A DNA stretch of 64,000 bases from Botryllus schlosseri (GCA_051294905.1 CM119371.1:11906001-11970000); one strand, 5' to 3'; shown: positions 4,729 to 63,379, counted from the stretch's first letter. Program-made: numbers and translations. The notes: generated by a model not told the origin, from the sequence alone.

Positions 4729-6017
4729 CAGTGGTTCCCAACGTGGGCGATATCGCCCCCCAGGGGGCGATTTGTCGGTCCAGGGGGGCGAAAATAGCCA
4801 AGGGGGCGATAGGGGGGCGAAAATGGACGAAGGGGGCGATAGGGGGGCGATTGCGCGTTGAAATGGCTATATTGGCGATCATGACCATAACTGCCACACC
4901 CAAACCCTCAATTGGGATGGGGGGCCCACAGTTTTTTCGCGAATTAACATTAATTAAATAATAAAGTATTATTCTGGAAATTAAGGCAACTTTTTCCAAA
5001 TAATTTCGCGCTACGCGCCATTTCATGGTCACATATTTATTGCTTATTGGTTACCCTTCCTCCAAGAAATAATACGCATGAGTTATAGAAATGGGCATCT
5101 CGGCGTCAGCCATTATCGCACCAATACATATAAAGTTTCAGGCCATGTAACATGCGACTCTGAGAAGTGTGCCAGAATGAGAAAACCTTGGCGGAAAAGG
5201 ACTGCCTTTATGCTGACCAACTTTGATATATATACTATATACATATACAGATTTAATTGTCCATGGGCGCCAAATGTTTCTGTCCTGGCAATCAAAACCC
5301 CACAAAAAATGCCATCTCGCAGAGAAAAATTAATTGCCAGTGCAGAAATACCAATTTGAAATCGTGAGCGTTTTTTAGTTTAGTACGTATGGGCGATTTT
5401 AATATCTTTTGACACAGCAGACAGGCCACGAAATGTCATTACGTAACGAAGTAATTATACCCACTGGCCCTACATTTTCCAAGACACCTCACTCAGCTTT
5501 ACCGGTAAATCTGAATACATGAGCCAAGAGAGGATAAAAAATTGACAGCAATATATATGCAATTCCCGATCATATTGACCGATTCAATCATGAATGATAG
5601 AAATTTTTCGCGCTTCGCGCGAATTAAGCTGACCAACTAAAGACAACAAAAATTTGTGCTGAGAAGTAGCGGTGAAGAGGTATCGGGGGAGTTGGGTCTG
5701 AGGGGTGCAGAAGTTTGCTTTATCGCCCTATGGAGGAGGTTCAAGACCAACGTATTGGGGTGGGGGATGACGAAGTGCCGTTGCGGTCCTATTGGAATCA
5801 AGTCGGAGAAATTACCTTTTCTGTTAGTCAACTCACCAAAATTTAGCTGGAAAAATGTAATTTCGAGGTCGAGCCGAAAAGTTGACCCTTTTTCTTAGTC
5901 AACTCGCCGGTTATTTCAGTCTGTATGCCCATTTTTCGGTTCCCAATATTTGGGGGGCGATGATCGGTCTGGATTTTGAAAAGGGGGCGATGAGTCGAAA
6001 AAGGTTGGGAACCACTG
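4729..6017. mobile_element. Non-autonomous Buster/Charlie-type hAT element
   Basis: TIR CAGTGGTTCCCAAC; perfect TSD GTCTATCG (4721-4728, 6018-6025); GGGGGCGA subterminal repeats. Confidence 0.92.
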
Positions 6018-7016: not shown

Positions 7017-7920
7017 CATATCAAACGCGAAACTTAAATCTGAAATCTTTGATGAATCTCAGATTCGAATACGGATTACAATTTCATATTAAGAAAGGTG
7101 CTCCCTACATGGAATCCTTTCTAGGATGTAGTAAATAAAACTTTTTGGAAGATCACAAAGCACCAAACTATAAACAATTGGTCCGAGAATTGGTATCTGC
7201 AGATGGAAACCTTGGAGCAAACATGAGCATTAGATGTCACTTCCTGTTCAGTTATCTTGACATATTTTCTGATAATATTGTTGATTAGAGGGAATTGAAA
7301 GGGGAAAGGTTCCACCGATAGATCAAAACAACAAAAGAAAGACATCAGTGCAGATGCGACGAACCTATTATGGCAGACTGTTGCTCGAACCTTTCGAAAA
7401 ACTGTACTAAATTGCGTATAACTGAAAATAGTACAATAAGCAATTTTGCTTTAAGATAAGTTAATAATATTATATTCCAACTGATTATTTTGAATTTAAA
7501 ATAGGTGGTTGACATAAAACTTATACAATTATCGCAACGTTATTTGGGTATTTAGGTAAATAGGCCTACTTATATACATGATTGAAGTTTATTTATGCAG
7601 GCTACGTGATATCCATGAAAGTCTCCAATTATCATAAATCTAATACCACGAAATATAATTCTGTTGATGTATTTTTATTTAAAACAGTCTTCAGCGTGTC
7701 AAAATAACAAATATATTGAATTTCTGAACTTCATAGTACGACTGAGCCAATTTTTATCTAGCGCGGCGAAAATATGAGATTTTAGTCAAACTAGCCCCAT
7801 GGAGAATGTCCCAAAATAGATCCAATTTGAAAAATAACTAAGGTAATATTCGAAATCAGTGCCCTTTAAAACCCCCAAAACCACTTACTTTGTCTGCCTA
7901 AAAATATGTGTTGACCAGTG
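7017..7920 (+). mobile_element. Chapaev3-like (CMC superfamily) transposon 3' remnant with decayed transposase, copy 1
   Basis: Degenerate translation gives HKAPNYKQLV..GANMSIxxHFLFSxLDIF..GERFH..MADCC; terminus tgttgaccagtg followed by TTA. Confidence 0.65.
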
Positions 7921-20758: not shown

Positions 20759-23700
20759 TCAGTATTCGTGAATCCACGGATGGTTAATGATTTCATCGAT
20801 TGTAAGCCGCGATTTTTCGTCTTTGCATAACATTCCTGTTATAAGATCCATGTATGCATCGGACATATCGTACCCACGACGATGGCGAAGATCGCATCCC
20901 ATAATGTCTTCCGGACTTTCGAACGGGTCCGTACCTTCCACGATGATGTACAACAACACTCCTAGGCCCCATAGATCAGTGCTCTTCAACCGGGGTGGTC
21001 GTACACCCTAGGGTGTACCAGAATTTGCAAAGGGTGTACCACTCGGATGGGGTGTACAGGGGTGTACCAGATCCTAATTACAATGAGCCGATGGCTAGCT
21101 ATCTCAAAGGCAGGTCTATTCGTCAGTACAGGTTGACGCACAGGTTAATGAGCAATATGGTGCGATGTTTATCTCAAGTGTAAAACTGAGCACCGCTAGA
21201 TTGTGATGTCATAAGCAAATATTTCTCCTATTCATTTAGCCGTCTGCAATTCACCAATGGTTCCGTTCGGTGTTGGAAAGGATGTAGTTAACATGGGTTC
21301 AGCTAGCTAGAGATTTCTCTTTTAGTGATTCTTGGGGAAACCGCCGCGACAGCTCAGACTTCTTGAATCGGTGCGTCCTTCTCGACGTTAATAAATAGTG
21401 CAATGCACATTAGGGCTGTTCAAAAATAACTTTTTTCTTCGGATTCCAGCCATTCACTGATTAAATTGTCAGGTTACCCTAAAAAACGCTGCACACCAAA
21501 TTTGGTTCGATTCTAACAAGTATAGGACTCCGCAGATCCAATTAAAATTTTTAATTTATTATGGAAAATTAAAAAAAAAATTCCCAATTTTCCTGCCAAC
21601 CCCATGAAATTGTTGAGCTGTCTTCAAAGACGTTGCAAAACAAATTTGAGTCAATTCCGACCAGTAGAAGCGGAGTTATGAGAGTTTTTCGTTGATAAAT
21701 CGCGGATTATCCACCAATCAAGGATAATCCGAGAAATTTCAACGAAAAACTCCAATAACTCCGCTTCTACTGGTCGGAATTGACTCAAATTTGTTTTGCA
21801 ACGTCTTTTAAGACATCTCAACAATTTCATGGGGTTGGCAGAAAAATTTGGAAATTTTTTTTTTAAATTTTCCATAATAAATTAAATTTTTTAATTGGAT
21901 CTGCGGAGGCCTTTACTGGTTGGAATCGAGTGAAATTTGGTGAGCAAGGTTTTCTACTGCAACCTGACGATTTAAGAGGTGATCGGCTTGAATCGGGAAA
22001 AAAAAGTTATTTTTGAACAGCCCTAATGCACGTAAATGAACTGACGTAGCCAGCCAGGGTCGAGGCAGCTTCCTTGTTGAGATCGAAATCCTATTGTTTT
22101 AAAACGCCGATTTTATGTCCAATATTTCGCCATACATTTGCAATTTAGTATTTTGTTATTAGTGGTGCAAATTAGCGACAAACGACAGTGTATAGCGACA
22201 TGCGATCTGAGGTTACTGACATCTCTTGCAGCCCGTGTGCTACTGTCGACTTTGTGTGGGGCAGGCTTGATACGCAGTAGGCTGGTGTGCCTGCTATCTT
22301 CGCTGGTCTGAATTACCGCTTCTGCAGCTGGTAGCTTTACCTACTCTCTCATCGTTCGTAATGTCATGCTGTTTTGGGGCTGACACGAAATAAATTTTAA
22401 TTTGCGTGGCGGGCGTCCTAACTGGCTGCAAATAGACTCTGAATCCCGTACTTGATTTGAGCTATTAATAAAACATAGAGATCAGAATAGGTGTGTCAAG
22501 GGTCGAGATATCAAAATATGGGAAATATCTGAATCATCTGAAGTTGCCAGAATTGCAGATCAGACTCGGAAATTTTGATTCGTGAAAATAATCCGTCGTC
22601 GCGGAGGTGGTGTACCTATCAGAGATGAGCGGATTTGAAATTTCTATGTCCTAATCCAATCCAAATCCGAACCTTCAAATCCAAATCCAAATCCAAATCC
22701 AGACCTTTTTCATATTCAAGTCCATGTCCAATCCTAATCCGATTCCAACTGGTAATTCAGAAAAAATACTAATTTATGCAATGGAGGGATTCGAAAATTT
22801 TCTTTCACAACCAACGATTCACTTGATTCAATATAACTTAGTAACCATGAGTACATTAATAACTGATCTGAATAAAGTTTGTCGCCATTCGCCACACGAC
22901 ATTTCAATCTCCCAGAAAATAGGTAATTCCAATCCAAATCCTAATCCGTTCTGAAAAAAATGTCTAATCCAAATCCGACAAAATTTCATCAATCCTGTTT
23001 TTTCAAAACCTAATCCTAATCCATGCTCATCTCTGGTACCTATTCGTTCGCGAAATGGAGTGATTGACAGCCGCTAATGCCTGGCCAGGGCATTGGCGAA
23101 TAGTGAATACGTAGAGTATTACCCGGAGATCTCGAACTCGCGAATTAACAGCGCAGCGGAACTCGCTGAAATTTTATAATAGCGTTTGAATGTGGACGTT
23201 TTATAACGTCAGTTCTCCAACACGAGTAATATTGTGTGATCCAGGTATTGTCATGCTTTAGGCGTGTACTTAACTATATTGGTAAATTTGAAAGAGATTA
23301 CAGAGGTTACCGTGTTCACGTGGTTGTTTGCCCCAATTTAAATAAACATGGACATGCGTAAGTTCTTCACGAAGCCCAGCGTAAGTGAAAGTGATAATTC
23401 TATTGAATCACGCAAGCCAGGCAATGTTGGTGAAACATATACTGAGACAAATGCAGAACAGTGTCCTGAAAGTATCATCAGCAACTTGCAGCAGCAGAGA
23501 TCTGATTCAACGAAAACCATTCGAAAGAAAATGTCCGGTGCCGCCAAGAAACGCAAATGGAATGATGATTACATCCGGTATGGATTTTATCGCACAAAAG
23601 AAGAAATGCTGAACCCTTATCCGCCAGCACGCTGTTTGTTTTGTCCTGTCGTCCTTAGTAATAGTAACCTGGCAGAGATGAGCGGATTTGAAATTTCTAT

Positions 23701-26700
23701 GTCCTAATCCAATCCAAATCCGAACCTTCAAATCCAAATCCTAATCCATACCTTTTTCATATTCAAGTCCATGTCCAATCCTAATCCGATTCTAACTGAT
23801 AATTCAGAAAAAATACTAATTTATGCAATGGAGGGATTCGAAAATTTTCTTTCACAACCAACGATTCACTTGATTCAATATAACTTAGTAACCATGAGTA
23901 CATTAATAACTGATCTGAATAAAGTTTGTCGCCATTCGCCACACGACATTTCAATCTCCCAGAAAATAGGTAAATCCAATCCAAATCCTAATCCGTTCTG
24001 AAAAAAATGTCTAATCCAAATCCGACAAAATTTCACAAATCCTGTTTTTTCAAAACCTAATCCTAATCCATGCTCATCTCTGTAACCTGGCTCCGCGGCA
24101 TCTAAACAAACATTTAAAAACACAACATCCTAGTCACCAAAACAAATCAAATGCATTTTTTGAGGAATCTCTGCGTCATCAACAGAAGCAAGTTTCTTGC
24201 TTTGAAAACGAAGTAAAAGGAGTGAAAAAATAATTAGCGATCGTTTCCCTAAAAATGACTCATGTTCTACTGAAGAAAAAGCGGCCATACACAGAGTTGG
24301 AATCCGTAGTTCTTCCTTGTCTTGAAATCGCAGCTGACCATTTGCATGGAGGTGAAAAAGCTCTCAGGAAAGTAAGAGCCGTTCCATTATCAGACACTAC
24401 AGTTAAACGGAGAAGCGATGATATTTCTCAGGATTTGCTGAAACAACTAGTTGTAAAGCTTAAGGATGCCACTGCCTATCAGAGATGAGCGGATTTGAAA
24501 TTTCTATGTCCTAATCCAATCCAAATCCGAACCTTCAAATCCAAAACCTAATCCATAACTTTTTCATATTCAAGTCCATGTCCAATCCTAATCCGATTCC
24601 AACTGGAAATTCAGAAAAAATACTAATTTATGCAATGGAGGGATTCGAAAAATATCTTTCACAACCAACGATTCACTTGATTCAAGATAACTTAGTAACC
24701 ATAAGTACATTAATAACTGATCGGAATATAGTTTGTCGCCATTCGCCACACGACATTTCAATCTCCCAGAAAATAGGTAAATCCAATCCTAATCCGTTCC
24801 GAAAAAAATGTCTAATCCAAATCCAGTCCAAATCCGACAAAATTTCACAAATCCTGTTTTTTCAAAACCTAATCCTAATCCATGCTCATCTCTGCTGCCT
24901 ATGGCATACAGCTTGATGAAACGACAGATATTTCAGATGAAGCGCAATTGATTGTATATTGTAGGTTCGCTGATGCAGAAGCAGAAACTATTGTCGAACA
25001 TTTTTTGTGCTGTGTAAAAGTTGGAGTTCGTACCACAGCTCAAGCCATCTTTGGTACGTTGAATAAATTCGTTGTGGAACATACTCTCGATTGGAAAAAG
25101 TGTAGATCAGTCACTACTGACGGAGCAGCAGCCATGCAAGGTCGTACAAATGGAGTTGTTCAGAAAATTAAACAAGTCGCACCGGATTGTGTGTCAAATC
25201 ACTGCATGATACATCGAGAGGCACTTGTAGTAAAGAAATTAAACCAAGAAAAAAAGGTGGAATGTCCTCTGGAGATTGTTTTTCATGATGTTGTCAAAAT
25301 TGTAAATTTTATTCGTTCACATTCCAAGACACATAGAATGTTTTCAGATCTTTGCAAAGACATGGGAAAAGAAGTAATAAGGTTGTTATACCATACCGAG
25401 GTACGCTGGTTGTCCAGAGGAAAGGTCTTAAAGCGAGTATTTCAACTGCGGAAAGAGGTGCATTTTTTCCTGGTTCAAAAAGGGCATGTATTGGCTGCTA
25501 AATTTGAAGATATCTTTTGGGTTGCAAATCTGTCCTATTTAACTGCAATTTTAGAGACCACCAATCAGTTGAATTTATCAATGCAAGGCAGAGGATTTGA
25601 TGTATTTGAGGTTGCCAGCAAAGTTAAAGCTTTTAAATGTAAGTTGAAGTTATGGCAGAACAATGTTTCAAAATGTGATTATTCAGATTTTGAATGTTTG
25701 AACAATTTCATCAAGAACAGGAATTGGGAAACCGATAACCCAAGCCTTGAATTAAAAGTAAAGTCCACCGTACATCAGCATCTCGATGTGCTGCAGCAGA
25801 ATTTTGAAGCTTATTTTCCAGAGGACGAATATTTGGATCTTGACTCTCTATTGTGGATCGTGCAACCTTTCACAAATGAAAGGTTGGATTTGGGCAACTT
25901 GACCGGGGAAGTTATTGAACTACGATCAGATTTGGTTCAAAAGGCAAAGTTCAAACAGCTCAAAAGCTACACTGATTTCTGGGTATCACTTCTTAAAATT
26001 CCTGAGTATCAAAATCTGAGTCAAAAAGCGATTACGATTCTTGTTCGCATGCCTACGACATATCTTTGCGAGCAAGGATTTTCGGCACTAGTTCAAATTA
26101 AATCGAAAAAAAGAAATTGCATCAAGGATGTCGATATGCTTATGAGAGGAGCACTCGAAAAAAGGCTACTGCCTAACTTCGCGCAGCTGGCGTACGAAAT
26201 ACAGCAGCAACGGTCGCATTGAATGTCTGGCATTATTTTGTAATTTTGTATTTGAATGCACATTGGTCCATAAATTCGTTCGTTATATAATCATTTTCGT
26301 CAATTACAAACGCCACAAGATTGCGAGTAGTCTTTTAATGAGATCCTTTCGACTAGCTAGGCAATTTCGATAAAAAAAACATGTACAACAAATGTATTTA
26401 AAAGTGACATAACAGACATGTGTCGTTACGCTTTATCGATATATTAGATAATACGGTAATCTCGAGTCCTAATTAGTATTTAGCAGCTCCTATAGCTTGC
26501 TAATCCTTATGATAATTAGGCCCTTTACCGACTTGGGTGTTTTATATGAACAGGGGTGTACGAGTTTGGAGAAAACGTTAAAAGGGTGTACCACGTCAAA
26601 AAAGGTTGAAGAGCACTGCCATAGATCGAGGCGAGGTCCATGGTAGGAATGTTCCGTATACCATTCTGGAGGGTAATACATCAGTGTCCCGGAGTAATGA

Positions 26701-28982
26701 TGTTCCCGGGGTGTCTGAAATAGGGAATAACAATTGATTAATATACGATTCAATGTCAGAAGTGTCTATGGAAGTTAACAATTGAAGCCCGCGATAAAAT
26801 ACCAACGCTGGCGCGAGGTGTCTTCACGAAATATGGACATGATAACAAATTTATTCCTGGATTTTGAAATATCAAATTAGCTTTTGTTTGGCTTGATGAT
26901 AAATCGTCGGCCACGTACCTGCAACCTCATACCGCACCCAAAATCAATCAGCTTTGACGCAAAAGTGCGCGGATCCAGAAGTACATTTTCCGGCTTGATA
27001 TCACGATGGACTACCCCGGATTCGTGACAGTGTGAAACTGCTAGAGCGACCTGATGGAAGACGCTTCGTGCGGTATCCTCTGAGAATTCGCCGCAGTCGC
27101 ACTGCGACTGCCGAATATCGACAGCGCGGTTCGGTCTTTCCATCACGAGCACGAATTCGTCTTTTTCATCAAACCATTCAATCATACCGATGATTCCTGC
27201 AAAATTAGATGATAAGAATGGATCTGTAAGCAGTTACTTCAAGTTATTACTAGGACCTCTAGGCATAATCGAGAACCTTTAGTCATTCGATTTGAGTCGC
27301 GAGTATTAAGAAGAATAGTGTGACATTACCATGGAGTTGGTCAGTAAGCCGAACGAAGAACCGTTATTCTATCAAGTACTGAAGTAGGTTATTATTACTA
27401 CAACTAAACTCGAGCGGTACTTATTCACTTGTTCTTCTACTTCACAGTTTTGAGTTTTTTTCGGTTAAACTAGGCCGAGAAAACCTAGCTTTTCTCACTA
27501 CGTGTAAATCGGTTCTTTTATTTCTATTTTAGTCATAAATTACTTCAACTTGAGTACCAACTACGCATGCACATGCATGATCATTGATCACCTTCCTACA
27601 AGACGGTGATAAAGTTATTAGTAGCGCAATCTCGTTTATGTTGGTATCAAAAGATTCGGCACGAATCCAAGCGATAAAAATGTAGTAACGTACTTTCAAT
27701 ACGCAGTCTAGAGATCATCATAATTTACATATTGTTCCATATCGATCTCAGCTCAAGCGGCAAGTCATGAGAATCCTGGCTAATCATCAGATGGAACGTG
27801 ATCAAATCCAAATCCGTAAGATTTTCGTTATCTGCTTCCACTTGAAGTAGGTTTGACGTGTCTCGGAAATCGATTGGTCTATGATCGTAATCGAGTAAAA
27901 TGTACAACCGTACTTCTAGTAGAAGGGCTTCGCATAGACACATTGAAATACACCCGAGAATTTTCGGCTGACACTCGTCATAAGTTATCATCAGCATCTA
28001 GTAGAGAATTGGAAAGAACATGGTATATCAACAATCAACTTTTATTACTACACGAGTATGGCTACTCCTGTATACTCTGCTGAATAGGTAGGCTTACAAT
28101 CAAGGATATCCTCGCTATCACACGTATAACTGCAGCATATCGACCGTAATAAACATCAATAACTAACCTGGATGTTTCGACACAGACGCTTTGTGAAGAA
28201 GCTCGAATTCTATCGGTACCGTGCAGCCTGAAAATTGAACCCATTGAGGTACGTTGAACTTGGGTATAAATTTTAAGGCAACGGCCTTGCCGTCTGATTT
28301 CCGAGTCGCTGCAGAAATAAATGAGACGTTAGATTGATCAAATCATGTGTGAGATATTTCATTGTAAGATGTAAATTGTGAGATGCCGCAGTATTTATTG
28401 TGGGGATTCCTAGACGTACGGAACTTTGAACAATTGAATAAAAATTCATATTGTGATATATATCAATAGATTCGGCTGGATATCGTCAGGGTAATCGTCA
28501 GTAAGTAGCTGACTCTGGCAAGAGTATTGAAAGGAAAATCTTATGCATAAAAATTTGAGTCATTTAGGCGAATATTTTAAATTATTTACAAAGTCAAATA
28601 TTTCAAAATAACCGTACGCCAACACAAATGAATAATGCTCTGAAAGATAACCTAATTTCGTTAAATCGAATGTTGGAAAAGATAACTCACCAGCGTGGAC
28701 CGTGCCGCCCCCACCCGACCCAATTTCTTCTCTCTCGTCGTACAATGCCGTCCAAGGTACGCGTTCCAACATGACATCAGGTGGTATGACGGCAGGATTC
28801 AGCTCTACATGCGGCGTACGTAGTAGGCGCCTGGTGCGACGTACCACCTTTTTCTCCCTCTTCCGAACTGCCGGCGAATTTTCGCTATTCGAATCCTCAG
28901 AACTGCTGCTCATGATCAGCATTTTTCGGGGTCTGTTCACGTCGCGCGAATTACTGAGATCTGACGACAATTTCCTTTTCAT
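20759..28982 (-). CDS. PIM: PIM-family serine/threonine kinase, 4 exons; last exon interrupted by a hAT insertion (probably a null allele)
   Basis: Exons 28982-28691, 28308-28168, 27196-26919, then 26714-26619 + 20968-20759; GT-AG introns, phases 1,1,0; 338 aa when restored. Motifs IGSGGGGTV, VALK, VPIEFELL, PIM-type hinge LVMERP, HRDIKPEN, DFG, GTLMYYPPEW, DLW|GLGVLLY, HPW. Confidence 0.9.
21411..22025. mobile_element. Foldback-like palindromic MITE (arms ~300 bp) nested in the hAT element
   Basis: tagggctgttcaaaaataactttttt ... aaaaaagttatttttgaacagcccta; arms pair almost to the centre (~21715); TSD ATGCACAT/ATGCACGT (7/8). Confidence 0.88.
22620..23035 (+). mobile_element. hAT MITE, CAGAGATGAGC family, nested copy 1
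   Basis: 11-bp TIR; perfect TSD GTACCTAT. Confidence 0.95.
23673..24082 (+). mobile_element. hAT MITE, CAGAGATGAGC family, nested copy 2 (within the BED-finger codons)
   Basis: 11-bp TIR; perfect TSD TAACCTGG. Confidence 0.95.
24480..24894 (+). mobile_element. hAT MITE, CAGAGATGAGC family, nested copy 3 (just before the first catalytic Asp)
   Basis: 11-bp TIR; perfect TSD CTGCCTAT. Confidence 0.95.
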
Positions 28983-29122: not shown

Positions 29123-31376
29123 CAGTGGTTCTCAACCTTTTTGAGCTCGCGGACCGGTAAAAATTTCAAAAAATAGTCGGCGGACCGGTGGATCTTCAAA
29201 AATTGAATAAACCCGAATTGCAATTGCGATAAAAGCATGCAACCATTTTTGGCAATGCTACTAGAGAGTGACATTTGAGGGATTAATTTGTGTTCATCAC
29301 GGCATTCATGAAATTCTGTGGTAGTGTGCCGAAGGCCTCGGATTAACCGAGTACACCAGGGGATCCCAACCCTTTTATGGTCGCAACCTCAAGACACCTA
29401 ATACCGTTTTGAAAATGTCCCGCGACCTCACCTCTCAATTTGGCGTGCTGACTACAAAAAATGGTGACCACTCCCCCCGCCCAAACCTACTCCTGGTCTA
29501 TACGGAAAGCTGACGACCATGTGCGTGTCAATCTCGTTCTCCGTCCCAGACTATATACCAATACATCGTTGTTTTGGAACTATTTCTATCTATATCGAAT
29601 CAAAGAAGTCGAATACTGCTACGTGAAATTCTGCGTCGCGCGAAATGCAGACAACAATCTATAAGTTGCTCGGCCACGCTCAAGGTTTGTTCTATTAACT
29701 CTGGTTCTGCAACTTTTACTAAAACTTCACGAAACGGTCGCTTCGCAATCTTTTGTATGACTCACGGCGCCTTACCAAATTAACGCAAACACCCATAAAC
29801 GGTGGTCTTGGTCGCCAAAGGGCGATCAATTTAATTTCTGGGAAAGAATTCTTCAGACCCCTCTTACCGCATTCGGTAATTTCAATACTACCCTTTCGCG
29901 AAGTCTTTCAGGGAGTACATTTTGTCAATAATACAGTAATTAATTTGTTGAAGCGTGTAGTTATTTCGTAAACCCAGGTAATGATTGTGGCTAATCGAAT
30001 AATATTGGAGTCGCTAACACGTACCAGACTGAAATAAAGAAAAAATCATTTTGCAATTCGCATTTTAACACTGGGAGAATTATTTCCCCCCGCGGATCGC
30101 ATTTACACCGTGCGCGGCTTAGATAAGGACTATTCCGTGACGACTATTTCAGTGCCTGAACAGATCAATACCGACGGTTCCGGCCAACATGCCGCCAGTG
30201 ATATTTTCCAGCGCACTTCTCGTGAAGTCGTTTGTTGGCAAAACCGCTCTATGTCGTAGTGTGTCGTGGCGCGGAAACGTTCAGCGCGGAAATGCCGATA
30301 ATGCAGTCACTCTTTACGCGTTCCTATAGATTAAAGTATTTCAACGGCCTTAAGCGATGCTCGCATAATTGCGAATGCAGGAAGATTCTTAAGATTTCAA
30401 TTCTGTAAATCTATGCGTATTTTGTTCCTGGGTGGGAATACGCACAATAAAATTGAGAAATGCGTAGTGAAACTAACGCGCGCAAGGCGAAACTCAAATT
30501 TAAAATTGAATAATTTAGCACTAAAATATTCTACTTTATCTTGATTAATGATATTATTTCGGCTCCCCTTGAGTTTGATTTAACAATAATTTGCCTGAAT
30601 TTTTTTAAATTCAAAAATTTAGTTTTTTTTTTCCGGATGGTTTGAATTTTTCGGAACATTTCTCGCAGACCCCAAACGAACCTCGGGACCCAGTTTGAGA
30701 ACCACTATGTTAACACATAGCACTATCGGTCACTTGTAAGGAAAACTACCATCCCATTGATTTCTAGCCTCACGACATTTGAATTTTAATAGAGGTGACC
30801 AGATGCCAACCTTACGTTAGAGTGAGTGGCGTTTTAGTATGACCCTTCGACTGAGCCGATACCTTGTTTGCCAAGTTCGCATTTTTCAGAGGTCGGTTTT
30901 TTCTATGTTGCAAAATGAACTAGAATATTCAGAAATGAACTGCCGATAGCACCCGGTTTAATGGCATTCTTGCAATGGTCATTGGTATTCAAATCCTGTC
31001 CCCGAGACTACGTAGAGTAGGTAAACGGACCCGTTGGGGTCGTGACCCCTAGGTGGGGAGCCCCGGGAATACCCAAGCTTGAATATTTTTCTTCGATTCG
31101 ATAATGTCGAGAGAAGAAGCGTTTCGGAGTCGGGACAAACACATTTGCTCATTTCCCACTACAACCAAACGTACTACGAAATGCGTAGTACGAATAAAAT
31201 GGGGATGTTTTTATTCAGTTTTAAATGTGATGTGTTGATCCTTTTATCCATTGATAAGCCGCCTTCTACTTATTTTATTTTGCAATTAAGTATAAAATTA
31301 CAAAATGTCTGGCGGACCAGCAGAATAGTCGTCGCGGACCGGCACCGGTCCGCGGACCGGCGGTTGAGAACCACTG
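29123..31376. mobile_element. Composite non-autonomous Buster-type hAT element immediately upstream of the kinase start codon
   Basis: TIR CAGTGGTTCTCAACC; perfect TSD CTCTAGAC; GCGGACCGG subterminal repeats; further hAT-like ends inside (~29357, ~30705). Confidence 0.9.
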
Positions 31377-34721: not shown

Positions 34722-36946
34722 CAGTGGTTCTCAACCTTTTTGATCCCGCGGCACCCTTTGAAAATGAAAAATAGTTCGCGGCACACGAGCACAGTGGTTC
34801 GCAACATTTTTGACTTACGGCAGCTTTAAACTACCAGAATGCTCAGTGGAACCCACAGTAGCAATGATAAAGTGATCTCTGACGAAACAATTCAGCCTTT
34901 TCGGAGCACTGAAATAGATTTTGCTTTTCTTCAAAGAAGAAATTACGGTATATTCTGTACCAGACATATCACAAATCAGTCTATGAATGTTATCATTAGA
35001 CATGAGAATCGTTTTCAATTCTAATTAGCCGCGGTCACAAAAACTGTTTTACAGTTTTAGTGCAAGCCGGAAGAATAACTTCGCTTCGCTGTGAAATATT
35101 GAATTTTTAGCTATTACCTCTGCTACAACATAACTTACCCGCTGCAATCTCGGTGAAACCTCGGGCTGCGCTGAGAGAGGGTTTTCATCCGACTCGGATG
35201 AGACACAGTGGCACGTACGGAGTCACAATGTACAATTGTACAAGTCGAAAAGGGGACGGGAAACGGCAGCTTTTGTCCCACGACTATGTCAACCTACGTC
35301 TAAAAGCAACGAAAATAATTTCGATTATGTAGTAACTGCAAGTTTATGCTGAAGTAACCAAATATTCCGGCGGCGTCATGTCGTTTGTCGTCTGCCGTGA
35401 AAAATGGTATTCATATAAACTCGGGCTGAAGTGTATCTGATGTAGATTTACGGTACTTGCGGCAGGTCCTGTTATTGTAACCCCAAACACACAGTGGGTG
35501 CGGGAGAATTGATATAATGATATTATTTGATCTAATTTACATCTCAATTCTTAAATTCGTCGCATGTGACATAACGTTACGCTCCGAGCCTACGGCAGTG
35601 CCGGCTGAGAACCCCTAATCTACGCGCACCATAAAGTTTCAACGAGATAGCAGTTCTGTTGAAGCGGAGGTAATAGCTAAAAATTCAAAAACTTACACGG
35701 AAACAGAGAATGTTGTTCTTCCGGCTTGCACTAGAACTGTAAAAAAATGTTTGTGACCACAGCTGTGGAAGAGTTGAAAACGATTCCCATGTCGAATGAT
35801 ACGATTTGCAGACTTATTTGTGATATGTCCGCCGATATAGAAGATACAGTAATTTCTACTCTGGAGCAGAGCAAATTCTACTTCAGTGCTCCGACAAGGC
35901 AGAAGTACTACATCAGAGACCACCCGGTATTGTTTGTAATTCGAATTTGTAAACGTGACCATCACTTCGAAAGGAGTTCATTTCTCGCTGGTGATTAGGA
36001 AGACGAGCTAGGGCCCAAAAGGGGCCTGGCTGCCCATCCAACAAGTCGCTGCTGAAGAGATACGGCGTGCTAAACCTAGAAGATATGCGGAAACTAGAAA
36101 TCGCCAAGTTTATGTATCAGTTCCACTGCGGTCGTTGCCCCGAGTATTTCAATGACTTCCTTACCTCGGAATCAAAAGCGCACAAGTCCAACACACGCGC
36201 GATCACGTCGTCCAAATATCATATGATCGACCGAAAAGATCATCGCTCTATCAAATATGCCGGACCTGATGTGTGGAACAGTATCCCGCCGGCCATCCGA
36301 CAGTCAACGAGGATGTCCACATTCAAGTCGAAATACAAGCAATTACTACTAAATAAATACAGTCCATCCTCAAGATTACCGGACCACGACTGACCTATCG
36401 ATCTCGCTTCCCATGACATGCCGCCCTATTTCTTGTCGCTTTCATCTTCTATACTATCTTCTTTACTTTCATTCAGTGTGCATGCCTCCTCTATACATCG
36501 CCCAGGCCTAGGCCAAGGTGGGTGTCAGATTCCATAGACTACTCCTGTCGCTTCGACATCTTCCTGTCTTTTCATTGTATCGCATTTTTTGTGGTGTATT
36601 GAACTGATAAAAATTGCTAATAAACCAATGATGATGATGAAAAGACCATGAAGATTAGAAAACTGCATTGCCACACAGGTGCCGCCATGTCGGCTCTTCT
36701 CTGCGATCAATAACGATGTTGCGTAAAACTGACTTCAGCCTTTAAAGATCGCGATGTCATGACAGTAATTTTGATTTGTCATATGTAAACTCTTCACGTC
36801 GAGTCTGATTTAGAATATTGGTCGTTTGCTACGTACTAGAATTATTTTGCACATAATTTCAAAATTTAGAAGAAATCTCTCGCGGCACACTTGGGAGAAG
36901 TAAATGGCACACTAGTGCGCCGCGGCACACCGGTTGAGAACCACTG
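34722..36946. mobile_element. Non-autonomous Buster-type hAT element carrying transposase scraps and a LINE fragment
   Basis: TIR CAGTGGTTCTCAACC; perfect TSD GATTAGGT; transposase-like ENVVLPAC..LKTIPMSNDTICRLICDMSADIE on + (~35700-35890) and an inverted homologue at ~34880-35125. Confidence 0.88.
36007..36639 (+). mobile_element. CR1/L2-group LINE 3' fragment
   Basis: ORF 36067-36393 (LEIAKFMY..HKSNTR..SIKYAGPDVWNSIP..FKSKYK) is typical of the post-RT C-terminus; AATAAA plus (ATG)n tail. Confidence 0.85.
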
Positions 36947-55630: not shown

Positions 55631-57019
55631 ATCCATATCAAACGAGAAACTTGAAATCTTCGATGGATCTCAGATTCGAATACGGACTAATGATTAGAAT
55701 TTCATATTAAAAAAGGTGCTCACTGCATGGAATCCCTTCTAGGATGCAGTGTTGGCATCAAGTCAATACCTTCGAGTCACGAGTCATCTCGAGTCATTGC
55801 ATATTTTCACTCGAGTCAAGTCAAGTCACCCGTTTTTTGGAGGTGACTCGGGTCAAGTCGAGTCAAGTCAAGTCAAGTCACGAGTCAAGTCACAATTAAA
55901 GTCAAATTGAATTTCGAAGTATGAGTGATGATTCAAAGTCATTACATTTTGCTACTCGCACAAGTGACACCGGCGTATCTTGAACAATCCCAACATACAC
56001 AAGATACATTGATTTAATCAACACTGTTTCACTTATTGACTTGAAATTGACTCGTAAATGTTGCTCCGCGTCACGAGTCAATGCAGATTTCTGAAGCTCC
56101 GAGTCAAGTTAAGTCAAGTCATTTTTGCAAAGTCACTCGAGTCAAGTCAAGTCATACGAAAAAGTTGACTCGAGTCCGACTCGAGTCCGACTCGAGTCAA
56201 GTCATGACTCGAGTCACCTCAACACTGCTAGGATGTAGTAAATAAAACTTTTTGGAAAACCACAAAGCACCCAACTACAAACAGTCCGCCAAAGGATTGG
56301 TATCTCGATATGTAAACTTTGGAGCAAACATGAGCATTAAATCTAACTTCCTGTTCAGTCATCTTGGTATATTTTCTGATAATATGCTTCATTATAGGGA
56401 AAAGAAACGGGAAAGGTTCCACCAATACGTCAAAGCAACGAAAGAAATATATCAGTGCAGATGCAGCGAACATATTATGGGAGATTATTGCTGGAACTTT
56501 CCGAACGAAAGTGCTTACCACCGAAAATAGTACAAGAAACAATTTTGCTTTAAGATAAGTTATTATTATTATATTGCAACTGATTATTTTGAATTTAAAA
56601 TAGGTTGTTGACATAAAACTGATACAATTATTGCAATGTTATTTGAGTATTTAGGAATATACTTATATACAGGATTGAAGTTCATTTATGTACTTGTACA
56701 TGAAATCCGTGAAAGTCCCCAATTATCATAAATCTAATGCCCCGAATTATAATTCTGTTGTTGTATTTTGTTTTAAAACAGTCTGGAGCGTGCCAAAATA
56801 CCAATTAGATTGAATTTCTGAATTTTACAGTACGACTACGCCGATTTTTTATTTATTCCATACAGCGAAAATATGAGATTATAGTCAAAATAGCCCCATG
56901 GATAATCTCCAAAATTAGAGCCAATTTGAAATAACCAAGGTCATATTCGGAATAATCGCCTCGCAGAACCACCAAAACCATTATTACTTTATCTGCCTAA
57001 AAATATGTGTTGATCAGTG
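55631..57019 (+). mobile_element. Chapaev3-like transposon 3' remnant, copy 2
   Basis: Colinear with 7017-7920; ORF 56252-56530 has NHKAPNYKQ..GANMSIKSNFLFSHLGIF..ERFHQYVK..MGDYCW; terminus tgttgatcagtg plus TTA. Confidence 0.7.
55747..56227. mobile_element. hAT MITE rich in GACTCGAGTC/AGTCA repeats
   Basis: TIR CAGTGTTG; perfect TSD CTAGGATG; empty site at 7121-7128. Confidence 0.93.
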
Positions 57020-57159: not shown

Positions 57160-57343
57160 ATATCATGGCATTGTAAGGCTTTCTAGGTCTTGCACCAGCC
57201 CCCTCACCAACCATGCTATAGCAGTAATGCTGAGCGCCAAGCGCGATACCAGCGTTACTGATCAGATCTCTGGTTCGTACCGGCCGGGTATTGAACCCAC
57301 GAACCCACGATCAACAATCAGGACGCTTCACCACTGCGCTATC
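57160..57343 (-). mobile_element. tRNA-derived SINE (family A)
   Basis: Minus strand has A-box-like tagcgcagtggt and B-box-like ggttcaatacc. Confidence 0.65.
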
Positions 57344-57708
57344 TTGTCGGCTAACTGCATTTGATAAAGCGGATACATAATTGGAACCACTACGGAAACG
57401 ACATATCTATATTTCTGTAACATTAATTGCTCCTGCGTGATAAAAACTGTTACGGGCATTGGCGCTTCTCTCTTTATCTCTGCCGCGCGGCGCTTCCCGG
57501 CCCTAATATAAAGTGCGTTTTATAAATCAGATAAATGAAACCATAATGCGTGAGCATCTTCAAATATAATCGATTCAGCTAACATAAATTAGTTGCCTGT
57601 GTCATAACAAATATCACGCGATTGGTGCTTCTCTCGTTATCTTTGCCCCTTTCGTATCGTCTGGCGCTTCCCGAACGGGCCCTGACGTCTAATATTTAAT
57701 TGCATACA

Positions 57709-58907
57709 ATGGAGCAGTCTTATCAATTCATCCGGCTCGTTACGTAAACAGACTTGAATCCACAGGATGTCTAGTCATCAGAAAGCGCTTGCATTTCTGG
57801 TATCTACGGGTAATAAGGTGACTACTATACTATATAAACCACCACTGGGATTACTCGCATCAGTTCTCATAATTCTTGGTTATATTCTTCGTAGAGAGAA
57901 ATAGGGTATTAGGAACTAATAGACTTGCATGTAGAATGTAGATATAGAGAGTGAGTGAATACATGTTATTCAGGCGTACCAATTCTACATTCAGATATCA
58001 ATTTATTGAGAACCCCATTTAATCATTTATTGCAAGATCGCGGATTTAATAAATATAATTTTTCTCATTTCAGTTTTATGAAATATATAATATTAGTCTC
58101 TCGGAAATAAAGAAAATATTATGAACGCGCAGAAAGAAACTCAAGTTTGCCCGGCGATATTTTGGCAAAAGTAAGAATGTATTTTGATTTTTGTAAATGA
58201 ACTCGAACGTACTTCTCTTCATCATCATCAATGGAACATGAGGGTTTCGAATAGTTCACTTTTTTATAAGTACTATTTTATTGCAGCGGGCCCATGCGGT
58301 TTGAGAACAGCGACTCGGAACGAGCTCTGGCTGAGTTGCTGAACAATTGGAGTCCGTTCGAAAAGACAGTTACTACGACGAAGACTAAAACATCACGTCC
58401 AAAATGTCGTGACCCGTATCTTGGGGCAATGAGAAAAAGAATCCAACAGGTACATGTTTTCGTGTTCGACGCGTGAAGATTGACTCTGCTATAATTTTAT
58501 ACATCCATATTTAACTATATACATTCAGTGAAATTTTTCAGTTATTTACTTCACTGATTTACTATACTTAGCCTACAGGATTGTTCCTTTGTCCTATTTT
58601 CTGCTAATACTGCCCCTTCCCGACGTACTTGTTCAGGTACGGCTTTTACATGGCACATGATTCATATTTACGCAACCAGTATGCTTCGCTACGTGACCTA
58701 TATCGCATGAAATCTGATGACGCTAATTCCTATGCATTCTTTCTTTTTTTGAGAAAAGGGGCAATGTTCAGCAAAGATATTTACTTACCCGACCGACCGG
58801 ACGAAGCAGGGATCAAGCAGTTCGGCCAACGAAATACCAAATCTCGTTACGACAAAAAACTGGGGGCGATACCGATCGACTTCAACGATGATGACGAGTG
58901 TTCTTGA
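57709..58907 (+). pseudogene. Copy 2 of the unidentified multi-exon gene, decayed
   Basis: Colinear with 1501-2845; extra upstream segment from ATG 57709 ending in a GTAA donor; multiple stops; last-exon acceptor altered. Confidence 0.55.
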
Positions 58908-60293
58908 GATATGGAGAGGATATTTGATTTCTTTGAATCCATCAAAAGCAACTGGCATTGAATAGCATTTTTCGTGATTAACACTGTTTCCAATTTCGTA
59001 TTTCTAAGTATTCTATCGAATAAAGCGATGAAGATAACGCTTTGTTATGTAATTTATAATATTCAAATTGCGATAGGCATTGTTTCATGGAATGCTAGAC
59101 TGTCGTAGCTCGTAAGTAACCATATCAGGGCTGCTTAAACTATTTTCCTTTGCGACAGTATTTTAGAAGATAAATTTCGACTAGACATCACCATGGGCAT
59201 GGGCAGTATATATATATGGTAATGTGGATGATATTCATCCGAAAAAAGTCCTAGAGCGAATTTTACAATGAGGTATGAACACATTGTCAGTCGATATGAC
59301 GTCACATTAGTGGAGTGGAACGTAGGTTTTGAATGAGGCCATATCTAATGCGGGCTTTAGTTATTAATTGGGTCTGCAACAGATTTCTTCACGGGCCGGA
59401 TGCAATCGTGTGCATGGTGGACGTCCCTGACTTCCCTGTTATACTGTTAGGTAGGAGCTGTTATCTGGTTGTGTGTTGGAACCAGGTCCGAAACATTATT
59501 TTTTCAGTCACCATCCTCCAAAAAATGCACTCATCTTGGGCCCACCATAGAGTAATCGATGCAAGTTCTTGCGGGCTTACTATAAGCATCTGCTTGTTAA
59601 AATTTGTGAATGATTTCTGTCAATGTTATTCGTTCTTCTATACTCCAGTAGGTTGCACATCCGGTGGTTTGCAAACTTTTATGGCTACGAGCTCATTTCC
59701 AATTTGAAAATGTTCCGTGGTCCAGCTCAAAAAATTATAGGCAGATTACAAAAAAATCAGCTTGCCCAGACTTACTTACAGCCGATTTTGGAAGCTTATG
59801 ACGTCCGGGTCCAGCATCTTCGCGATCCTCAGAATAAAGTCAAACGGTACCCAGGTTTAGAACAAATGTCTTTAACTAAACCAAAGCGTCCAAACGGCTT
59901 TAACCAATTCTAGCAACATGGCGTTATCTTATAATTGCGATTACAACTAGATTTATTTCAGTAAATGATGGTTATTTTTATTTATTTTTGATGGTATTTT
60001 TTTGCGAGAGCGGTGCACAGTCCCCATATTAACATCAATATAGGATGTATTAAATCGCACGCAGCGCGAAGAAAAATTTCAAATAGCATAAATCTGATTA
60101 AAAATAATATTATTTACGTTGATCTACGAATTATCTTTTAGCCTACTTCAAGATTTCTAAATGGCAACCCTAAACTAGCTATTAGCAACACAAGATATGA
60201 TAGTTATATAATATAATTGAAGAAGCCTGATGCGATGGATGTGCCTGATTCCGACGTAAAGAAGTCATAAATTCATGCTATACAGAACAATAC

Positions 60294-60713
60294 GTTGTAT
60301 CATTGAATACAGTAACGTCAATAACGACTATCCTCAACAGTTTTTAAAGAGGACTATTTGCGGGAGACATGTGTTGCTGAGTGGTTAAGCTATTCAGAAG
60401 ATTCAGAAGAATTAAAAATGTTCCTTGAATTTATCATAATAGTTAGTATACTTATGGTAATAAAATGGCTTTTTATCCGAAGGGAATCGTGTTTTCCGGA
60501 ACAGTTGTATCATTGAATACAGTAACGTCAATAACGACTATCCTCAACAGTTTTTAAAGAGGACTATTTGCGGGAGACATGTGTTGCTGAGTGGTTAAGC
60601 TATTTAGAAGATTCAGAAGAATTAAAAATGTTCCTTGAATTTATCATAATAGTTAGTATACTTATGGTAATAAAATGGCTTTTTATCCGAAGGGAATCGT
60701 GTTTTCCGGAACA
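60294..60713 (+). repeat. Near-perfect 210-bp tandem duplication
   Basis: 60294-60503 versus 60504-60713; one difference seen (tattcagaag vs tatttagaag). Confidence 0.95.
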
Positions 60714-61731: not shown

Positions 61732-63379
61732 CCATACAGTTATAGTGTCATTCGATGTTATTTAGCTAGATTCCTTTCATCAGCATAAATAAATCATCTT
61801 GTCTTCTAGTGCAGTGCTCTTCTTCGTCGTGGTAGACCCTTTTCACACTTACTCGAAAGTCGCACACCCCTGAGCACACTATATACCGATTCCGTAGCAA
61901 GCCTAATCCAGGGGTGTTCAACGTACTTCACGGTCGCAATTCGATTACATGCCGCATTCCAGTAGAGGGTCGTCATGGCCCACCTGGACGACGAATGCTC
62001 ATGTTAAATTAGCTACCGTGAACATTGGACTGCAAAGAGCCCGTGTGGTGTTCTGTGCCATCATTGTTTTCTTGCGACTTATCTTGCGTACAAAAGTTTC
62101 TCAATGTAGAAGAAGAACACCTCCGCAAATTTACTATGCAATAAAATCGCGAGTATTACTGTTAGGAAAAGTTATCGGGATTCGTTTTCTAGACGCGCGG
62201 GGCGCGAATATTATTAAACCTCGCATTATTTGTATTGAGTTTTTCCGCACCCTCGATGTACCTAATTGTTGCCCTGGTTTTCTTTTCTTCCGTTCTTGTC
62301 ATGTGGTAGTTGCCCCTCGAAAACGCGCGTGTGTATAGTAGTTGTGCGCTTTTGATTCTGAAGTGAAGTAGTCATTGAAAATCGTGGGACCGCCACCACA
62401 ATGAAACTGACTGATTGGCAATTTCTAGCATCCTCTTGTCTTCTATGTTTAGAAAACCAAATCTTCTGAGTAGCGATTCATCAGTTGCACATCTAGTCCA
62501 CTCGGTACCTTGGCAATGATACCGAGAATCCGATGCTGTAGTCCAGTGGTTCTCAATCGCGGGTCCGCGAAGCAATTTCATGGGGTCCGCGAGACCTCTA
62601 AATTTTTAAAATGATTTTTAACCTTTTTTGTAATTTTTTAATTTAGGGAAAGCATGAAGCAGTTTTCCTTCCACAACTGATAAAACCTAATTACTCACAT
62701 CATCAGAATAATCGTATGACACGAAATATCCTACTGTGCAAATTCCTTTCAATTGCCATATTGCTGATAACCTACTTATAAAAACATATTGCTCTTTCGA
62801 GACGTTTTGTTGAGGTTTGTATAAAAAATAAAAATAGTGACAAAGTAACATCAATCATGGTGACTTCTTAGTCGGTGTCATCAAATTAGTTAAGTCGTTT
62901 GAAATAAAAACTCCTAAAGTATTTTTACTAGTTTTCCCAATGAAGGAATTGAAACCTCGCCATGAAGTCCATTTTATCCTGCACTTGTTCATATCAAATC
63001 GAAGACGCGGATTTTCAAGACCACGTAGGCCTACTTTGAGAAATACAGCTGCAAAGTTGGCGTTGAAATAATAAAAGTCCACCTAATTTCAAAATAAATA
63101 GTATGATGTCATTATCAAGAAAAGTCATTTTGTTGCTGTTTATCACAAACCTAGAAAGGCTGCATCTGGACACTTTGAAACTGTATGCTATATGAAATAC
63201 AGCAATATACCCAATCTAGTGGTTAAGGATTGTAGTTTTCGGACTTCCTACTACCATGTTCTGACTTCACGAAAATTGCCGATATTTTTTCACCTCCAAT
63301 TGCCGATACGGATAATTCTTTCAAAGTGTGATATCAACTCGATATTATCGGCGAATTGATAATCGGCCAGGCTCTAATC

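Follow-up and report, generated by a model that had tools for sequence, protein, structure and literature searches.

This analysis concerns a Pim-like protein kinase gene of the ascidian Botryllus schlosseri and a hAT transposon inserted in its last exon, both in a stretch of 64,000 nucleotides (nt) of genomic DNA (GCA_051294905.1 CM119371.1:11906001-11970000), referred to below as the window. The kinase is encoded on the minus strand by four exons, and its introns are all GT-AG. Exon 1 (28691..28982) carries the ATG, a low-complexity N-terminus, and the glycine-rich loop in the gene model, and exon 2 (28168..28308) carries the catalytic Lys and the alpha-C Glu according to gene model and alignment. 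Exon 3 (26919..27196) contains the hinge and the HRD and DFG motifs (Pkinase E 1.8e-21; top PDB match Pim-1, E 6.6e-22). Exon 4 is in two parts. Its modelled 5' part (26619..26714) encodes subdomains VIII-IX and ends in a target site duplication (TSD), and its 3' part (20759..20968) encodes the rest of subdomain IX to XI and the stop codon (Pkinase E 4.2e-09). Between the two lies a Buster-type hAT element (20977..26618) on the plus strand, antisense to the kinase, with a length of 5,642 nt, or 3,754 nt minus the elements nested in it.

Anatomy of the insertion

The two copies of the TSD, CCATAGAT, form an 8-nt direct repeat at 26619..26626 and 20969..20976 with TA at positions 4-5. They abut perfect terminal inverted repeats (TIRs) of 15 nt at 20977..20991 (left) and 26604..26618 (right). 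Of the D-L-W motif of subdomain IX, the TSD spans codons 268-269 and the final two bases of codon 267. Excising 20977-26618 and one TSD copy leaves 1,017 nt that encode 338 amino acids (aa), with the sole stop at the end and no frameshift or splice-site loss. That a perfect 8-nt direct repeat should adjoin a 15-nt inverted repeat, also perfect, with the frame restored on removal, is far beyond chance. An assembly artefact is ruled out because TIR and TSD are perfect at both junctions. Recomputation of the TSD, TIRs, exons, and nested elements thus reproduced the coordinates and anatomy of an initial annotation made from the sequence alone, including its claims that the TSD duplicates the D-L-W codons and that removal of the insert restores the kinase.

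For comparison, four of 24 listed public runs were used: the contig sets X1, X5, and X7, and the raw RNA run X18 (one bulk sample, tissue unknown), of which 12.9 million reads, or 6%, were taken. Run X1 may be the source sample. Among the contigs, 15 of 388 joints and 40 of 517 substitution rows are listed, so that the counts below describe a selected subset, and contig depth is not equal to copy number.

With the insert in place, translation gives 269 kinase residues followed by 42 aa from the element, closed by a premature TAG on the minus strand (26490..26492, read 26492-26490). The last 69 kinase residues, which correspond to Pkinase profile positions 183-263 and to the remainder of subdomain IX to XI, are cut off and the end of the C-lobe is lost, as had been described. 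By established kinase structure, the loss of subdomains IX-XI would make the truncated product inactive and the allele null.

A different outcome can be imagined. The TSD gives subdomain IX its D-L-W start a second time, and the kinase frame runs open through both ends of the element; an animal kinase gene could therefore have acquired a new intron in the hAT. The element would be spliced from the transcript, leaving a full kinase with a few extra residues in one loop before the re-created subdomain IX, and the insertion would be tolerated. That the host gene has stayed intact would then be accounted for, and among the GT/AG pairs near the ends, 13 yield an in-frame, open product longer by 5-43 residues. 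Maize Ds1 is reportedly spliced from exons. The available part of PMC2921059 holds nothing on Ds splicing from host exons. On a rough splice-site matrix, however, the best donor scores 0.3 as compared with 4.6-5.9 for the gene's real ones, and the best acceptor 0.7 as compared with 2.3-5.6. Moreover, an AATAAA at 26339 lies 150 nt past the premature stop, and depth in X18 is zero in the bins over kinase exons 1-3 among the 12.9 million reads. We regard retention of a working kinase by splicing as very improbable.

The host kinase

Several searches place the kinase near the Pim family. In a PDB search with exon 3, the best 42 rows are Pim-1 or Pim-2 (E about 1e-21) and AMPK comes next at 7.5e-12; named matches in the protein search are mostly pim-like; and the alignment shows the hinge motif E-R-P, which we take to be PIM-specific. 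In a 30-row tree, in which long-branch rows are placed unsurely, the kinase falls inside an ascidian Pim-like clade together with Phallusia and Ciona proteins (support 100/99). Phallusia mammillata P0007 ('pim-3-like') and Ciona intestinalis P0024 are 45-50% identical to it over the kinase domain, and the GGGG loop and subdomain IX Asp are common to this kinase, the long ascidian forms, and vertebrate Pim-1/Pim-3. In contrast to the long ascidian forms of 904-975 aa, the kinase has 338 aa, and its branch (1.68) is more than ten times longer than those of four such forms (0.015-0.084). In comparison with eight aligned relatives, Pro replaces the catalytic-loop Asp at residue 213 in H-R-D-I-K-D-E-N, and the conserved D-L-F-D helix is replaced at residues 172-174. 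Because of these departures, the protein is called Pim-like rather than an orthodox PIM. It would be a short, fast-evolving extra copy of a conserved ascidian Pim-like kinase. P0020, at 287 aa, is likewise a short and long-branch member of the clade, and short fast-evolving Pim-like duplicates may be recurrent in the ascidian group. Similarity to P0267 stops where exon 3 stops, which suggests an intron common to both genes. A literature search by titles returned nothing relevant on ascidian PIM kinases or tunicate PIM expansion.

Contigs that diverge by 7-9% from the locus and have lower depth (X1 records 5 and 7, X5 record 14) cover 27035-27207, 27991-28185, and 28775-28976, in exon 1, exon 3, and intron 2. 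They suggest a second kinase copy. No second copy lies within the 64-kb window, and searches with exon 3 for a close paralogue or allele gave none above 55% identity among 120 matches listed and none above 57% among 150 listed.

A separate TIR element of 2,254 nt (29123..31376) with a perfect TA-centred TSD, CTCTAGAC, lies 141 nt upstream of the kinase ATG, so that an effect on the promoter or 5' leader is possible. The kinase copy might have fallen silent or become redundant ahead of the hAT insertion, with this element as one possible cause, in which case the hAT would be a passenger in a dead gene. The blank over exons 1-3 in X18 and the diverged second copies in the contigs are in line with such a history, as is the loss of 15 of 83 columns that are invariant among the eight relatives. 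On the other hand, the frame, the splice sites, and the catalytic motifs are intact despite the very long branch, and a long-dead gene would not keep them; a gene dead beforehand is accordingly a rather improbable setting. The description of the host as pristine holds for its frame and splice sites; it does not extend to the element near its ATG or to six coding sites at which the kinase differs from all three contig sets.

The hAT element and its nested MITEs

The hAT superfamily is defined by an 8-bp TSD, TIRs of 10-25 bp, and a length of 2.5-5 kb (PMC3942097, partial text), and by a BED finger and a DDE transposase (PMC2874221, partial text). The present element has an 8-bp TSD, 15-nt TIRs, a length of 3,754 nt minus nested elements, and both domains. 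Its transposase open reading frame (ORF) lies on the plus strand in three pieces (23348-23672, 24091-24479, and 24903-26222, within 23348..26222), which, when the two intervening insertions described below are taken out, form 677 codons with a single TAA at 24231. Four close relatives share with it the Cys/His residues of the BED finger, the three acidic motifs, CxxH, and Trp, except that a residue next to the third acidic one is substituted in one of them. A match to the C-terminal dimerisation domain PF05699 (E 0.0018, 18.5 bits) is under the cut-off of 21.4. The nearest relatives are ENA proteins at 68-71% identity, and the named ones, at about 37-53%, are ZBED5-, SCAND3-, and FAM200-like proteins, which are presumably Buster-derived.

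The Buster family goes back to Arensburger et al. 2011, cited for its definition in PMC3942097 and PMC3517528 (both partial text), and has the TSD consensus nnnTAnnn (PMC3517528). The sequence CCATAGAT fits this consensus, though for a single site the fit has a chance of 1 in 16. This element has in common with Buster hATs the 8-nt TSD with central TA, short TIRs, the BED finger, and the DDE transposase, and its placement in the Buster clade is putative. It differs from an autonomous hAT in that its ORF is broken by two nested elements and the TAA, so that this copy is non-autonomous. Over the stretches listed for other copies, neither gaps nor stops occur. Two further elements in the window, at 4729-6017 and 34722-36946, have similar TIRs and perfect TA-centred 8-nt TSDs, which indicates that Buster-type elements are common and young here. 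A relative of the element's right end, 75% identical, is found at 61805-61872. In the non-coding 5' part of the element (21084-22500), contig depth to either side of MITE A is hundreds of times that of the transposase, so this part has sequence in common with high-copy repeats; it showed no TIR/TSD boundary.

Four MITEs (miniature inverted-repeat transposable elements) lie nested in the hAT, which, together with the TAA, agrees with the initial annotation. MITE A (21411..22025; 615 nt) is palindromic and its TSD copies match at 7/8 positions. MITEs B1 (22620..23035; 416 nt), B2 (23673..24082; 410 nt), and B3 (24480..24894; 415 nt) lie upstream of the transposase, inside the BED finger, and just before the first catalytic Asp, respectively. 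All three have 8/8 TSDs, and joints that skip them are present in the contigs of X1, X5, and X7. No joint skipping MITE A is among those listed, and this, together with its TSD mismatch, indicates that MITE A may be older than the insertion in the kinase. The hairpin of MITE A gave one Rfam match, sub-threshold and taken as chance. A search of 20990-23350 for a further nested element with TIRs and a TSD found only A and B1.

B1-B3 have the same orientation within 2,275 nt (22620-24894), and only one diverged partial copy occurs elsewhere in the window. B1 and B2, 1.5% apart, have in common a base that is rare in the family; as one apparent sub-lineage they fit a local hop, a process described for transposons (PMC2874221, partial text). 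B3 differs by 3%, for which a hop has P 0.0003-0.007 at younger age estimates and 0.19 at the oldest, and it looks like an independent arrival. The TSDs of all three carry CCT at positions 4-6. Local hopping plus regional targeting is a possible cause of the cluster. At other places in X5 contigs, B copies lie 12-23 nt apart, so that clustering looks like a habit of the B family. Plant MITEs show clustered and nested insertions as well, in what has been called a 'safe haven' (PMC3695323, partial text): in both systems several MITEs of one family sit inside an already inserted element, but the host here is the transposase gene of another hAT family. In maize Ac/Ds exon alleles (PMC3260210, partial text), a hAT likewise interrupts a coding exon and an 8-nt stretch is duplicated; DNA transposons nested in another hAT are described there too. 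In contrast to maize, the host here is an animal, the nested elements are of other hAT-like families, and the comparison is one of sequence.

Probable order of insertion and decay

The state of the element elsewhere bears on when it decayed. In addition to the joints that skip B1-B3, one X5 contig of 1,684 nt crosses the B2 and B3 sites without either MITE, gap-free and differing at 7 of 1,591 nt, and in X18 one read, below the listing threshold for reads, covers the B2-free junction. Position 24231 is G at full depth in the three contig sets (232.7/232.7, 386/386, and 13.1/13.1). Divergence from the run contigs is 3/398, 7/1591, and 20/1838, or 0.4-1.1%; a form of the element free of B MITEs and of the stop thus exists at this distance. 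Polarised against the 68-71% relatives, eight amino-acid differences comprise five derived in this copy, none in the opposite direction, and three that could not be polarised. The 12 listed ORF changes (four silent, seven missense, one nonsense) are indistinguishable from neutral change (P 0.24). The depth of the X5 element contig, 386 as compared with 125-153 for kinase pieces, is suggestive of several element copies.

It is likely, in our judgment, that an intact Buster-type element inserted and then decayed in place, in a long-branch and probably dispensable ascidian Pim-like duplicate. An intact hAT without B MITEs would have landed in the last exon of the kinase and cut off its last 69 residues, and the three B MITEs and the stop codon would have been gained in place. 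The loss would have been tolerated if the gene was a fast-evolving extra copy, and the time since insertion may have been too short for breakage of the kinase frame, the TSD, or the TIRs. The result is probably an ordinary young gene knockout by a cut-and-paste transposon.

The initial annotation had instead seen, in a damaged element beside an intact host, a need for a special history. This contrast mostly dissolves, because the element has decayed by only 0.4-1.1%, and perfect ends and an open kinase frame are unsurprising at that age. With 0.44-1.1% divergence, the 46 nt that make up TSD and TIRs have a probability of 0.82-0.60 of remaining perfect; with 0.44-1.0%, the kinase has one of 0.77-0.28 of carrying no stop, frameshift, or splice lesion, a range that varies with the assumed indel rate. 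In other words, the ends would be perfect 60-82% of the time and the frame unbroken about 30-75%. The chance that none of the four MITEs falls in the 1,017-nt kinase coding sequence is 0.38. Three of the six coding differences of the kinase are silent and three missense, and with host divergence of 0.9-2.5% they are indistinguishable from ordinary polymorphism.

One such special history is that the element decayed at another site and that the crippled composite was later moved into the kinase by transposase acting in trans, the insertion being much younger than the decay. Perfect TIRs and TSD would be natural in this case, near-identical and apparently open copies exist as a possible source of transposase, and a maize macrotransposon shows that hAT ends can move large cargo (PMC3260210, partial text). 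A longer history also accommodates three MITE arrivals more easily, and the missing donor is explicable, since cut-and-paste can leave none and rare forms are lost from contigs. However, perfect ends are expected anyway at this divergence, and no second locus with the B1-B3 composite appears among the joints and contig pieces listed for the three runs, in which the TAA base has zero depth. Kinase differences per base are about equal to those of the transposase, which could, however, be a product of host polymorphism (0.9-2.5%). Mobilisation in trans, proposed earlier, gains no support from a form in three runs that lacks B1-B3 and the stop, and we consider it unlikely.

Several points weigh against decay in place. 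The succession of events is deduced rather than observed, and no empty-site joint is among the 15 of 388 listed. Contig building loses rare or minority forms, so a second composite copy could stay hidden. Three B copies in 2.3 kb exceed random arrival (P about 0.004, calculated post hoc). The other 68 of the 83 invariant columns, all catalytic motifs included, are kept, which argues that the gene was constrained in the past, and a ratio of nonsynonymous to synonymous polymorphism of 0.29 in the kinase (P 0.13) does not show release from selection. The contigs at 7-9% may represent a deep allele, not a paralogue, and the RNA blank comes from one sample of unknown tissue.

Presence in the population and significance

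Whether the insertion is fixed or a polymorphic allele, the other option of the initial annotation, stands at about even odds. Pointing to absence of this copy from the runs, none of the three contig sets has any depth for its TAA base or for eight further bases of its ORF, and the MITE sites are crossed by contigs with no break. Pointing to its presence, an X5 kinase contig outside the left TSD has a depth of 152.8, above that of two listed joints, with no empty-site joint listed, and the B1/B2 base at 23879 has a depth of about 25 in X1 and 126 in X5, near that of the kinase pieces. A protein search with the 69-aa piece, a weak search, gave no candidate of 37-121 aa for an intact exon-4 ORF. 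A literature search by titles gave nothing relevant on ascidian insertion polymorphism.

At 1382-2604 with 57211-58928, 7121-7755 with 56228-56849, and 60294-60713, the window also holds dispersed long repeats, 79-93% identical, and a perfect 210-nt tandem duplication. A scan for bacterial promoters and terminators found nothing; its bacterial models are irrelevant to animal DNA.

As a knockout, the locus would be a clean and ordinary gene loss by transposon, with value as a young pseudogene that can be dated. It would also be a sign that this animal has a Buster family that is nearly intact and Pim-like duplicates that are short and evolve fast. The locus would be of greater importance if splicing removed the element and left a working kinase, or if the B MITEs proved to target the transposase gene of another hAT.

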